Below, piece after piece: positions 4,490-61,294 of a stretch of 64,000 nt of DNA. The notes below the pieces were generated by a model. It was given only the letters and a program-made list of their open reading frames with translations, did no database searches and was not told the DNA's origin. Position numbers and translations under genes: made by a program. The first letter of the stretch is position 1. Every line of letters begins with the position of its first letter. Source of the stretch: a virus. The stretch spans positions 1,029-65,028 of IMG/VR virus record IMGVR_UViG_3300001598_000053, one strand, 5' to 3'.

Positions 4490-4958
4490 AATGAAACACG
4501 TATTTTTATCAGAAAAACTAAACAAGTATTTCGAGTCTGAACTTGACTGCGTTAAAGCAGAGAAAGAACTCGAAGAAGCAGAAGCTAAGAAAAGAGAATT
4601 AGCCAATGCAAAGAAAGCCGAAGCAGCTAAAGTAGAAGATGCATTCAAGAAACTAAACGCTGCAAAGAAAAATTTAAATGAAGTAGCAGAAGCAGCTGGC
4701 AAAGCATATGTCGCTGCAGTTCGCGAAGCAAAGAAGATCTACGACGCCGCATTCGCAAATGCAAATAAGAGCAAAGAAGAGGCAGAAGCTGAATTCAACA
4801 AGCAATTAGAGATCTTCAACAAAGCACATCCAGAAGGATTCCATCTAACTCTCAGAGACGGCGATGTCGTTAAGACTTACTCAACCACTAGCAGAGTCGA
4901 TGCCTTCGAAGAGCTTAAGTCTTTAGAAGACAAACTCTGGAAAATGCTTTTGGGCTAA
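4490..4958 (+). CDS. K/A/E-rich coiled-coil hypothetical protein
   Basis: ORF; SD AGGAGA before ATG 4490 (longest ORF begins at 4380 without a ribosome-binding site). Confidence 0.5.
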
Positions 4959-59511: not shown

Positions 59512-59678
59512 TCTTAGAAATATAGCCCTCTTCCAATGAGGGCTTTTATTTTTAATAAATATAGATGAATTAAATAATTAAATGCTAAATTATTAACATA
59601 GATGATTGCATAAATATTATAAAATTTTAAAATATAAACTGTATATTATCTTGTAAGCAAAACCTTGCTTATACTCTT

Positions 59679-59754
59679 GGGAGCTTAGCTCAGCTGGGAG
59701 AGCGCCACCCTTACAAGGTGGATGTCACAGGTTCGAGCCCTGTAGTTCCCACCA
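59679..59754 (+). tRNA. tRNA-Val (anticodon UAC)
   Basis: Cloverleaf: acceptor GGGAGCT/AGTTCCC, D-arm GCTCAGCTGGGAGAGC, anticodon loop CTTACAA, T-loop GGTTCGAGCC, CCA encoded. Confidence 0.85.
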
Positions 59755-59870
59755 TTCATCTTATATTTAGGTGATAATAGAGTAGATACCTCCATAAGGT
59801 TGAGATGCCTTATACCGACTGCAGCGCGTAAAGTCCACTTAGGTACGGAGTGAAGACATCGTACAAACTT

Positions 59871-59946
59871 GCCGCCTTAGCTCAATTGGCAGAGCAACGC
59901 ACTTGTAATGCGTAGGTTAATGGTTCGATTCCGTTAGGCGGCACCA
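59871..59946 (+). tRNA. tRNA-Thr (anticodon UGU)
   Basis: acceptor GCCGCCT/AGGCGGC, anticodon stem ACGCA/TGCGT loop CTTGTAA, T-loop GGTTCGATTCC, CCA. Confidence 0.85.
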
Positions 59947-60090
59947 TTCCAATGATTGCCGCTTGTTAGCGTGGAAACAGGAAAGTAGAGATAATAGCAA
60001 TCTTACCTAAATGCTAGGAAAATAGAGCTTATACTTATTTCTTAACAACTGACAAAATGAATAAAATTAGTTAAGCCAAGCATTCAATTT

Positions 60091-60166
60091 ACACCCGTAG
60101 CTCAGTAGGTTAGAGCAGGCTCCTTATAAGGGCAAGGTCGTTGGTTCAAATCCAACCAGGTGTACC
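60091..60166 (+). tRNA. tRNA, anticodon loop CTTATAA (UAU, Ile-AUA reading; assignment tentative)
   Basis: D-arm TAGCTCAGTAGGTTAGAGC, T-arm GTTGGTTCAAATCCAAC, acceptor ACACCCG/CAGGTGT, CCA. Confidence 0.65.
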
Positions 60167-60262
60167 AGTCGACAAGTATGAAGGTCGTTAAACACATACA
60201 CTAGAGCCTATACTTATTTCATTTTTATAGGAAAAAGCAAAAAATCAGTTAGGCCAATTTAT

Positions 60263-60338
60263 TGGGGTGTAGCCAAGTGGTAAGGCAACAGACTTTGACT
60301 CTGTCATTTCGCTGGTTCGATCCCAGCCACCCCAGCCA
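60263..60338 (+). tRNA. tRNA-Gln (anticodon UUG)
   Basis: acceptor TGGGGTG/CACCCCA, anticodon stem ACAGA/TCTGT loop CTTTGAC, T-arm GCTGGTTCGATCCCAGC, CCA. Confidence 0.8.
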
Positions 60339-60770
60339 TTGGAAGGAAAACCAATCAAACCAGTAAAGTTAAGGTGCTACAATAACTATTAGGCTTGACC
60401 AAGTGGTAGTTAAATGAAGTAAAAAGTTAACAGCCTTAGCTTAAATATCTTCTGAATAACACCTTAGCAAGTGGAACTAGATGTGGTATGATGCTGACCA
60501 ACCTCCTATATAAGAACCTTATAAGGCATTAGGACGACCACTACTGAAATTGACGCGAGATAAAACTGAGATGGTGTCTCGGGGTAAGAAGCAAAAACAG
60601 AAGGGAACTGTAAACCTGGTGATTCTCAGCCATATAAATGTGGAAGCTTTAGAATTAGGCAGTACTAGATAACACCATTAAGTTAGTAGCGACAAGGAAC
60701 CGTCGTGAAACCAATATAGGAACCTTGTAGAGGTCGAGAAGGCAAGTAAAATAAGACTTGGCCCTCAAAT

Positions 60771-61088
60771 GCGGGACTGGCGAAATAGGTAGACGCAAGG
60801 GACTTTATTCCAAAATTTTCAAAAAAGAGTGCCAGAAGAGAAATCTTCTGAGTAGAATCTGGCTAACTCGGTTAACATCCTAATCGGAATACATTAGGAC
60901 AATCCCGAACTAAATCAGCAACATGCTGTAAATGCGTAGAGAGCATAGACCAGACGCCTAAATCTAATTTGACATGGCGATAATGTGCTCCAGACTACAA
61001 CATCTTAGATGGCTATAGCAATATAGAGTAGTAGGAAACTCCCTCGGGCGATGAGCCCGTGCCGGTTCGAGTCCGGCGTCCCGCACCA
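60771..61088 (+). tRNA. tRNA-Leu (anticodon UAA) interrupted by ~230-nt intron (60806-61035) between anticodon positions 34 and 35
   Basis: 5' half GCGGGAC-TG-GCGAAATAGGTAGACGC-A-AGGGA-CTT; 3' half AAAC-TCCCT + long variable arm CGGGCGATGAGCCCG + T-arm GCCGGTTCGAGTCCGGC + GTCCCGC-A-CCA; acceptor and anticodon stems pair perfectly across the two halves. Confidence 0.75.
60806..61035 (+). ncRNA. candidate group I intron in tRNA-Leu(UAA) anticodon loop
   Basis: Follows U34 of 5' exon, ends with G before A35; no ORF; contains CAGACTA (P7/R-like); size like known tRNA-Leu(UAA) group I introns. Confidence 0.5.
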
Positions 61089-61294
61089 GCTGCCATGAAA
61101 GTAAGCACCTACACAATTAATTCTAGACGAAAGTGAAAGGCTGAAATCTGAAATAAACCAAATCAGTGCTATTTGGCCACGATTATTAGACGTGGATAGG
61201 ATACGTAGTGGATACCCTAGAATCAAGTTGCAACTTGACTAATATTAAAATACAAATATGCCGATAAGGCATATTTTTTAATTAGAGGCTATAT

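Follow-up and report, generated by a model that had tools for sequence, protein, structure and literature searches.

A group I intron, predicted to self-splice, in the tRNA-Leu(UAA) gene of a phage-like tRNA array

We analysed a 64,000-nucleotide (nt) stretch of viral DNA (positions 1,029 to 65,028 of IMG/VR record IMGVR_UViG_3300001598_000053, hereafter the window) and focused on a transfer RNA (tRNA) gene at positions 60771-61088. The results indicate that a phage-like genome with a tRNA array carries a tRNA-Leu(UAA) gene in which a group I intron of 230 nt, lacking an open reading frame (ORF) and predicted to self-splice, separates U34 from A35. We hold this account as a whole with considerable confidence. 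We regard it as nearly certain that the tRNA-Leu(UAA) gene contains a group I intron, which, judging from its sequence, is probably able to splice. Group I introns at position 34/35 of tRNA-Leu(UAA) are already known from cyanobacteria, plastids and many bacterial phyla; the setting in a phage tRNA array is unusual, and the present results add that the intron family is widespread in phage contigs yet hidden from routine annotation.

Joining exon 1 (60771-60805; plus strand, as are all features of the window given below) to exon 2 (61036-61088) yielded a perfect 88-nt type-II tRNA-Leu(UAA). Exon 1 supplies the 5′ strand of the acceptor stem, the D arm, the 5′ strand of the anticodon stem and C32, U33 and U34, whereas exon 2 supplies A35, A36, A37 and C38, the 3′ strand of the anticodon stem, the long variable arm, the T arm, the 3′ strand of the acceptor stem, A73 and an encoded CCA. 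After removal of 60806-61035, ARAGORN reported an 88-nt tRNA-Leu(taa) with every stem perfect: acceptor, 7 base pairs (bp; GCGGGAC/GTCCCGC); D, 3 bp; anticodon, 5 bp (AGGGA/TCCCT); variable arm, 5 bp (CGGGC/GCCCG); and T, 5 bp (GCCGG/CCGGC). The anticodon loop reads CTT-AAAC, with the hyphen marking the junction. The 230-nt insert follows U34 (U60805), and its last base is G61035. No ORF lies wholly within the insert, and those overlapping its edges are only short, TTG-started frames of 41-73 amino acids without a Pfam match. An initial annotation of this DNA had proposed two halves 230 nt apart that rebuild a perfect 88-nt tRNA-Leu, with these stems, this loop and a long variable arm, a 5′ exon ending in U, an intron ending in G and no ORF in between; each of these points was recovered within 60771-61088.

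In intron mode, ARAGORN recognised the interrupted gene in the uncut sequence and gave the intron a length of 230 nt, but it mis-named the gene Phe(gaa), because it set both boundaries one base leftward. We assign the gene to Leu(UAA) because of its type-II body, the U/G boundary rule and its uninterrupted homologues. Neither a default ARAGORN scan nor Rfam at gathering thresholds detected the split tRNA-Leu gene, which was seen only with relaxed settings.

IMG/VR and a metagenome collection were searched with 27 nt of exon 1. The results showed that 118 of the 138 tRNA-Leu(UAA) genes with an identical 27-nt 5′ half were uninterrupted, reading GGGACTT-AAAATCCCT and so running CTT-AAAA across the proposed junction, and that the other 20 were interrupted exactly after CTT. 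Most of these 20 interrupted genes hold the same intron family, with the guide TTTGAGCAC, a GAAA-capped P2 and GTGAATGG. This pattern of presence and absence fixes the insertion point at U34/A35, where it had first been placed, and agrees with the 34/35 position that a 2026 survey lists as a usual site for tRNA-Leu introns of group I in bacteria (PMC13011429; the survey dealt with bacterial tRNAs and not with phages).

The Rfam model RF00028 (gathering score, 50 bits) aligned over its full length to 60796-61028 with 23.2 bits (E 9e-4 for the 551-nt stretch searched). Homologues scored above the gathering value (L084, 77.4; L092, 54.4; L051, 54.3; L229, 62.7; L225, 60.5 bits); the best nhmmer match of the window gene was L051 (E 1e-25), within a homologue range of 1e-25 to 1e-17. 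The low score of the window intron is accounted for by P7, whose strands have been altered by compensatory changes: the family consensus G(A)GACUAU/AUAGUCC is G(A)GAGCAU/GUGCUCC in the window, with two pairs changed on both strands and one pair turned into a wobble. The bulged A and the G-C pairs on either side of it are kept as in the consensus. Such compensatory changes are evidence of selection on the P7 helix.

A family covariance model, R1, was built from four compact members. P7 was not included because it is pseudoknotted with P3, and the alignment was therefore not fitted to P7 pairing; in the "type B" relatives (Lak, L019, L198 and L010), P4-P5 could not be aligned to that of the window, and this region was left out of the seed. 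R1 gave 30 matches in the window, the megaphage genome Lak-B1 and 24 IMG/VR contigs, with the window scoring 195.8 bits. Among 27 distinct family members, standard pairs occupied 94.3% of cells, compared with 72.8% in column shuffles and 31-46% when the structure was slid by 1-3 columns. Changes on both sides were seen at 37 of the 47 pairs of the family alignment, P3/P7 pseudoknot included. By helix, the paired cells amounted to 93.8% (P3), 91.3% (P4), 93.2% (P5), 95.0% (P7) and 99.0% (P8), with two-sided changes in all five. Alignments made with plain MAFFT showed every sequence pairing in P3, P7, P8 and the outer stem of the 3′ domain (P9), although the sequences themselves differed; P3, for instance, appeared as UCUGG/CCAGA, GGUGG/CCACC, UCUCG/CGAGA, UCUCC/GGAGA and CCUCU/AGAGG. 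The minimum free energy (MFE) fold of the intron alone (-53.8 kcal/mol, z = -2.5) recovered every nested helix (P2-P6, P8 and the P9 domain). The covariance-model search suggested at the outset thus gave a sub-threshold RF00028 match in the window, passing scores in homologues and a family model with a covarying core, and the proposed group I identity is upheld by covariation in P3, P4, P5, P7 and P8, with the P3/P7 pseudoknot.

Comparison of the intron (60806-61035) with compact relatives and Lak-B1 gave the following elements. The 5′ strand of P1, GGGACUU (60799-60805), lies in the exon and, as read from the sequence, faces the internal guide GAGUGCC (60827-60833), which reads GAGUGC or GAGCAC in all relatives. 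At the 5′ splice site, U60805 and G60827 make a U.G wobble, and ACUU/GAGU provides four contiguous pairs, followed by one G.G mismatch and two G-C pairs, an arrangement that is alike in relatives with a GAGUGC guide. P2 is the hairpin CAGAAGA-GAAA-UCUUCUG (60833-60850; GAAA tetraloop, 60840-43), with two-sided changes at 7/7 pairs and a place in the MFE fold. In P3, UCUGG (60858-60862) pairs with CCAGA (60950-60954) according to the alignment and covariation; 5/5 pairs form in all 7 sequences of the plain MAFFT alignment, which include 5 different sequences, and all 5 pairs covary. A second CCAGA (60991-95) was tried as the 3′ strand of P3 and rejected, since covariation favours the first.

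P4 is UCGG/CCGA (60868-71/60905-08), seen in the alignment, covariation and MFE fold, and P5 is UCCUAAU/AUUAGGA (60878-84/60893-99), with J4/5 and J5/4 within 60868-60908. P6 is the hairpin CAGC-AACAU-GCUG of the MFE fold (60916-60928; stem 60916-19/60925-28), in whose place the alignments of relatives show hairpins of other sequence (GGACA/UGUUC, CCUC/GAGG and UGAAC/GUUCA). The strands of P7, G(A)GAGCAU (60939-60946) and GUGCUCC (60985-60991), form 7/7 pairs supported by alignment and covariation, with G60939-C60991 and G60941-C60990 flanking the bulged A60940. By analogy, G60941-C60990 would be the guanosine-binding site, as P7 G-C pairs and a bulged A correspond to that site in solved group I introns. 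P8, CGCC/GGCG (60955-60979; 4/4 pairs, all covarying), encloses CCUAAA...CAUGG, a variant of the 11-nt GAAA-tetraloop receptor CCUAAG...UAUGG; the canonical CCUAAG/UAUGG occurs in Lak-B1 and several relatives.

The 3′ domain (60992-61035) consists of the stem ACUAC (60994-98)/GUAGU (61028-32) around two hairpins, CAUC-UUA-GAUG (61001-11) and CUAUA-GCAA-UAUAG (61013-26; GCAA loop, 61018-21), followed by AGG with the omega-G at 61035. Its helices are 98-100% paired with covariation and are also present in the MFE fold. The initial annotation had taken CAGACTA (60992-60998) for a P7-like element. This assignment was rejected: Lak-B1 and 20+ relatives put P7 at 60939-46/60985-91, and CAGACTA lies 3′ of P7 and pairs with GUAGU near the terminal G. 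The P9 domain is closed by a stem whose 5′ strand is CAGACUAC. The terminal G is conserved in 15 of 16 delimited relatives, and in L011 a C replaces it. Features of the window intron that would fit subgroup IC3 are the GAAA loop of P2 (L2), the receptor variant in P8, the GCAA loop in the P9 domain and the lack of a P5 extension. The P2 GAAA, receptor-like P8 and P9-domain GCAA suggest, by analogy, tertiary clamps of the kind established for the Azoarcus intron.

According to the mechanism we propose, the array would be transcribed as a single unit and the intron would fold into P1-P9, with the L2 GAAA presumably docking on the receptor-like P8 and with P3 and P7 as the pseudoknotted core. Free guanosine or guanosine triphosphate (GTP) would bind G60941-C60990 of P7, beside the bulged A60940, and would attack the bond after U60805, held as a U.G wobble with G60827 in P1. 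The terminal G61035 would then take over the guanosine site, and the 3′-OH of U60805 would attack after G61035, joining U34 to A35 and restoring the loop CUUAAAC, so that the ligated junction would read GGGACUU-AAACUCCC. The re-formed anticodon stem AGGGA/UCCCU would align the exons, and ordinary end-processing would yield the 88-nt tRNA with its encoded CCA. Neither the ORF list nor a domain search of the flanking ORFs revealed an endonuclease ORF or domain in or beside the intron. It would therefore not be independently mobile by homing and is probably inherited together with the tRNA gene; it may also be exchanged by recombination with host tRNA-Leu genes of the same intron family.

Several observations weigh against this account. 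The window intron scores far under the RF00028 gathering value (23.2 vs 50 bits), and the Rfam consensus "S" element, the 3′ strand of P7, was left unaligned. P4 comprises only 4 Watson-Crick pairs plus two mismatches, as against 6 pairs in the closest relatives; contiguous pairing in P1 is limited to 4 bp; and the window intron offers no convincing P10. Because of the window's own P7 substitutions, the guide GAGUGC (60827-60832) can also pair with the 3′ strand of P7, GUGCUC (60985-60990), a pairing that the MFE fold uses and that could be a kinetic trap, a switch or a misfold. In addition, although the intron resembles the small bacterial tRNA introns, its assignment to subgroup IC3, drawn from architecture and from likeness to Azoarcus and Anabaena sequences, is tentative. 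The weak P4, short P1 and guide/P7 pairing leave room for slow or helper-dependent splicing; decay is less likely.

One alternative is a genuine group I intron that is efficient only with a protein helper, such as a host or phage RNA chaperone or a maturase-like factor. Many group I introns need protein cofactors in vivo, and the short P1, weak P4 and possible competing fold are what such an intron might show. We nevertheless regard this as unlikely, since there is no maturase or endonuclease ORF in or adjoining the intron and small bacterial tRNA introns of like build self-splice in vitro (Anabaena and Azoarcus, and the Nostoc control in PMC13011429).

Quite improbable, in our estimation, is a decaying, splicing-dead relic whose tRNA-Leu(UAA) is a pseudogene carried in the array. 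The sub-threshold Rfam score, the two P4 mismatches where relatives pair and the alternative pairing of the guide would fit such decay, as would degenerate-looking relatives (L011, with C for the terminal G, and L255, whose 78-nt insert does not end in G). However, compensatory P7 changes on both strands are not expected without selection for the helix; no damage is seen in the other helices, the conserved joining segments, the bulged A, the omega-G or the U.G wobble; and the exons give a flawless cloverleaf. UUA is the commonest Leu codon of the window (40% of Leu codons at 37% G+C), so that a tRNA-Leu(UAA), the reader of UUA, would be useful to this genome, and no second tRNA-Leu was found in the 64 kb. 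The compensated P7, the U.G wobble, the omega-G, the perfect tRNA stems and the UUA usage are signs of maintained function.

The distribution of the intron was examined with a 15-mer from its 3′ part, CCAGACTACAACATC, common to the window and Lak megaphages and scanned through IMG/VR, and with nhmmer searches using the window gene. The latter gave more than 20 viral loci, which ARAGORN in intron mode resolved into tRNA genes interrupted in their anticodon loops. The same intron family is carried by at least 24 viral contigs of IMG/VR and by Lak megaphages. The delimited viral loci comprised 12 tRNA-Leu(UAA) genes with introns of 206-772 nt and 3 tRNA-Lys(UUU) genes (boundaries corrected by homology), and the insertion followed C32-U33-U34 in every one. 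The interrupted tRNA-Lys(UUU) genes are located at L044 9260-9456, L198 760-987 and L084 3769-4014, with bacterial counterparts in L230 and L219. Occurrence of one family in Leu and Lys genes indicates that it has moved between two tRNAs with a common CUU 5′ context. BLAST searches of 50,697 phage records with two queries gave tRNA-associated matches only in Lak metagenome-assembled genomes (MAGs), besides a few unrelated phage loci, and no cultured phage with the window's intron was found among these records.

Three contigs gave two intron-model matches each (L092, 8259-8416 and 8755-8957; L019, 3083-3288 and 4343-4573; L063, 579-887 and 1222-1370) and may carry more than one intron-bearing tRNA gene. 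The 245-kb viral contig L071 has, in region 696-1540, a 772-nt tRNA-Leu(UAA) intron with an HNH-like ORF (...CENCGH...HHIDGD...CPNCH...) in the P1-P2 region, likely a homing endonuclease version of the family. The viral tRNA-Leu(UAA) gene of L255 (minus strand, 4777-4942), which shares the 27-nt 5′ half, is interrupted at 34/35 by only 78 nt ending in C; an insert of this size is too small to contain a group I core and may be what a deletion left behind or another type of element.

Among bacteria, one gapped pattern of 21 bases, run once against 185,579 species genomes, matched at 28 loci, mostly in Prevotellaceae, Bacteroidaceae or Bacteroidales MAGs, with several in Clostridia. Cultured Clostridia with the family include Massiliimalia massiliensis (NZ_FUHT01000003.1) and Candidatus Soleaferrea massiliensis (NZ_CCYH01000048.1). 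Bacterial copies sit at 34/35 of tRNA-Leu(UAA), or of tRNA-Lys(UUU) in two cases, and measure 214-255 nt or ~685 nt; two Clostridia copies pass RF00028, with 62.7 and 60.5 bits. Whether these homologues lie inside prophages is ambiguous from their context, which shows a resolvase by the Massiliimalia gene and otherwise nothing phage-like. In M. massiliensis (L229, 4428-5048), this serine-recombinase (resolvase) gene lies directly upstream of the intron-bearing tRNA-Leu(UAA), which suggests a mobile element integrated beside it.

The larger ORFs of the window lie nearly all on the plus strand, with many small ORFs without known function. Its gene content includes an SNF2 helicase, a DNA methyltransferase, an ATP-dependent DNA ligase, PhoH, tail-fibre-like and Ig-domain proteins, a phi29-gp16-type packaging ATPase/terminase and an NrdD whose nearest match is that of Enterocloster phages (64% identical). 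On the strength of this phage-type content, the window is very likely phage, as the initial annotation had held. The relatives of NrdD and the nearest bacterial intron homologues point to gut Clostridia as the likely host group. The seven-gene tRNA set mostly reads A/U-ending codons. The putative transcription unit of the array (59593-61276) contains tRNAs Val, Thr, Ile-UAU and Gln, a 432-nt spacer and the split tRNA-Leu; a promoter-like site (59593-59620) and a terminator-like hairpin (61254-61276), both consensus matches only, mark its ends, from which we infer that the array is one unit. The tRNA at 60091-60167 has the anticodon UAU (Ile, reading AUA), which is uncommon in bacteria, and AUA makes up 24% of the window's Ile codons. 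The non-coding spacer between tRNA-Gln and the split tRNA-Leu (60339-60770) had no Rfam match and a fold z of -0.12.

Two absences tell against a phage and for a bacterial locus (a chromosomal or island tRNA array), which would make this another bacterial tRNA-Leu intron: neither a capsid nor a portal gene could be identified in the window, and the 50,697 phage records, in which megablast with 20 kb of the window gave tRNA matches only, contained no close relative, let alone a near-identical record. The same family also occurs in bacterial tRNA-Leu(UAA) genes, cultured Massiliimalia and Soleaferrea included. Yet a bacterial locus is very improbable given the terminase/packaging ATPase, Ig-domain tail-fibre-like proteins, phage-like NrdD, ligase, PhoH and SNF2 helicase, the many small ORFs nearly all on one strand, the seven-gene array of A/U-ending codon readers and the same kind of split tRNA in at least 24 viral contigs and Lak phages. 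Finally, unrelated tRNA fragments (already considered unlikely in the initial annotation), a protein-spliced bulge-helix-bulge intron or a group II intron have nothing beyond the split gene in their favour and a negligible probability, since the halves give a perfect tRNA and homologous split genes occur in dozens of independent contigs alongside intact, uninterrupted homologues, the insert lies at 34/35 and not 37/38, has 230 nt and a covarying group I core, and is far too short for group II, of which the Rfam search found no match.

The intron can be set beside several known systems. Group I introns of the Anabaena/Nostoc PCC 7120 type, found in bacterial and plastid tRNA-Leu(UAA) genes (Xu et al. 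1990 and Kuhsel et al. 1990, as cited in PMC3984707), share with it the gene, the U34/A35 site, small size, lack of an ORF, the U before the 5′ splice site, the terminal G and a P1 built from the 5′ strand of the anticodon stem. In contrast to them, the window intron lies in a gut phage-like genome and has a three-way junction in its 3′ domain, with ACUAC/GUAGU around two hairpins. The Azoarcus tRNA-Ile(CAU) intron (IC3; PMC13168695) is similarly compact (~200 nt), sits in an anticodon loop and has the P2 GAAA and a P8 of the 11-nt-receptor type; its P9 domain bears a GNRA loop, and its P7 a bulged A. It differs in its tRNA and insertion site, in P7 (GACUAU/AUAGUC, vs GAGCAU/GUGCUC in the window) and in the receptor, which is CCUAAA/CAUGG in the window. 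A segment of the Azoarcus intron, ...GUAGAGACUA...ACCUAAG...UAUGGUGAAGGCAUAGUCC..., would be nearly the family consensus, which serves as a lead and not as a test.

The tRNA-Leu(UAA) introns of gut Clostridia and Bacteroidales show whole-gene homology to the window gene (nhmmer E 1e-21), the same site and the same helices, and the Clostridia copies likewise encode CCA. Unlike the window gene in its phage array, the bacterial copies are lone tRNA genes in bacterial assemblies. Some Bacteroidales and phage copies (L071; ~685-772 nt) contain an HNH endonuclease ORF, whereas the window intron has none; these long versions match the HNH-bearing tRNA-Leu(UAA) introns mentioned in Bacteroidota (PMC13011429).

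Classical phage group I introns (T4 td, nrdB and nrdD, Twort, SPO1 and others) occur only in protein-coding genes, with none in tRNA genes even though phages have many of these (review PMC3984707). They are likewise phage-borne group I ribozymes, with self-splicing predicted for the window intron, but most belong to subgroup IA, and homing endonucleases are often encoded in them. In Lak megaphages, tRNA introns were called "enigmatic" and "not reported previously" and were left unclassified; they were listed in Phe-GAA, Gly, Thr and Tyr tRNAs, and one intron (Tyr) was counted in Lak-B genomes (Devoto et al. 2019, PMC6784885). They too are phage tRNA introns, and Lak-B1's own tRNA-Leu(UAA) holds a homologue of the window intron. 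We conjecture that a one-base mis-call, as made here by ARAGORN, may also lie behind the Lak Phe(GAA) label. In Lak-B1 (L001, MK250020.1; 866-1609), the tRNA-Leu(UAA) apparently holds two group I introns, one in the D loop and one in the anticodon loop. The former (~886-1193) lies between exon sequence ending ...GGAATTGGT and AGACACGAGGGACTT and scores 40.5 bits with RF00028 (E 1e-8 at 1012-1186); the latter lies at 1210-1557.

We found no description of group I introns in phage tRNA genes in the literature searched, which did not extend to subscription-only papers. The initial remark that phage tRNA introns are rarely reported holds in that they are scarcely reported (PMC3984707; PMC6784885), but they are not rare in metagenomic phage contigs. 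Although no new mechanism is revealed, the results bear on several issues. Phage tRNA inventories are under-counted because standard tRNA finders miss the gene or mis-name it Phe(GAA). Phages may shuttle intron-bearing tRNA genes among gut bacteria. The family offers compact natural ribozymes (206-250 nt) with natural compensatory variation, useful for folding studies, and, for the tRNA introns of Lak megaphages that are still unexplained, it yields a concrete hypothesis.

A broader reading, that group I introns are a regular, unrecognised feature of phage tRNA genes and are kept because they help the phage, seems to us distinctly unlikely. It would draw on the occurrence in Leu-UAA and Lys-UUU genes, always after C32-U33-U34, on several introns per phage in some cases, on the two in one Lak-B1 gene and on an apparent exchange with gut Bacteroidales and Clostridia. 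If it were true, the introns might benefit the phage by breaking up the DNA site targeted by tRNA-gene-specific endonucleases or spacers, or by making the amount of a rare-codon tRNA depend on GTP level or infection stage, and part of the "enigmatic" Lak tRNA introns would be explained.

Two further observations concern neighbouring RNAs in the viral contigs. Rfam tRNA matches of 139-156 nt (L198, 1830-1985; L071, 3123-3275; L052, 127-265) are further phage tRNA genes with unexplained inserts of ~70-80 nt, reminiscent of the "enigmatic" Lak introns. A ROOL RNA (296 bits) and permuted transfer-messenger RNAs (68-69 bits) were located near the tRNA arrays of contigs that carry the intron (L092, 4991-5605; L071, 1775-2030; L010, 3067-3353).

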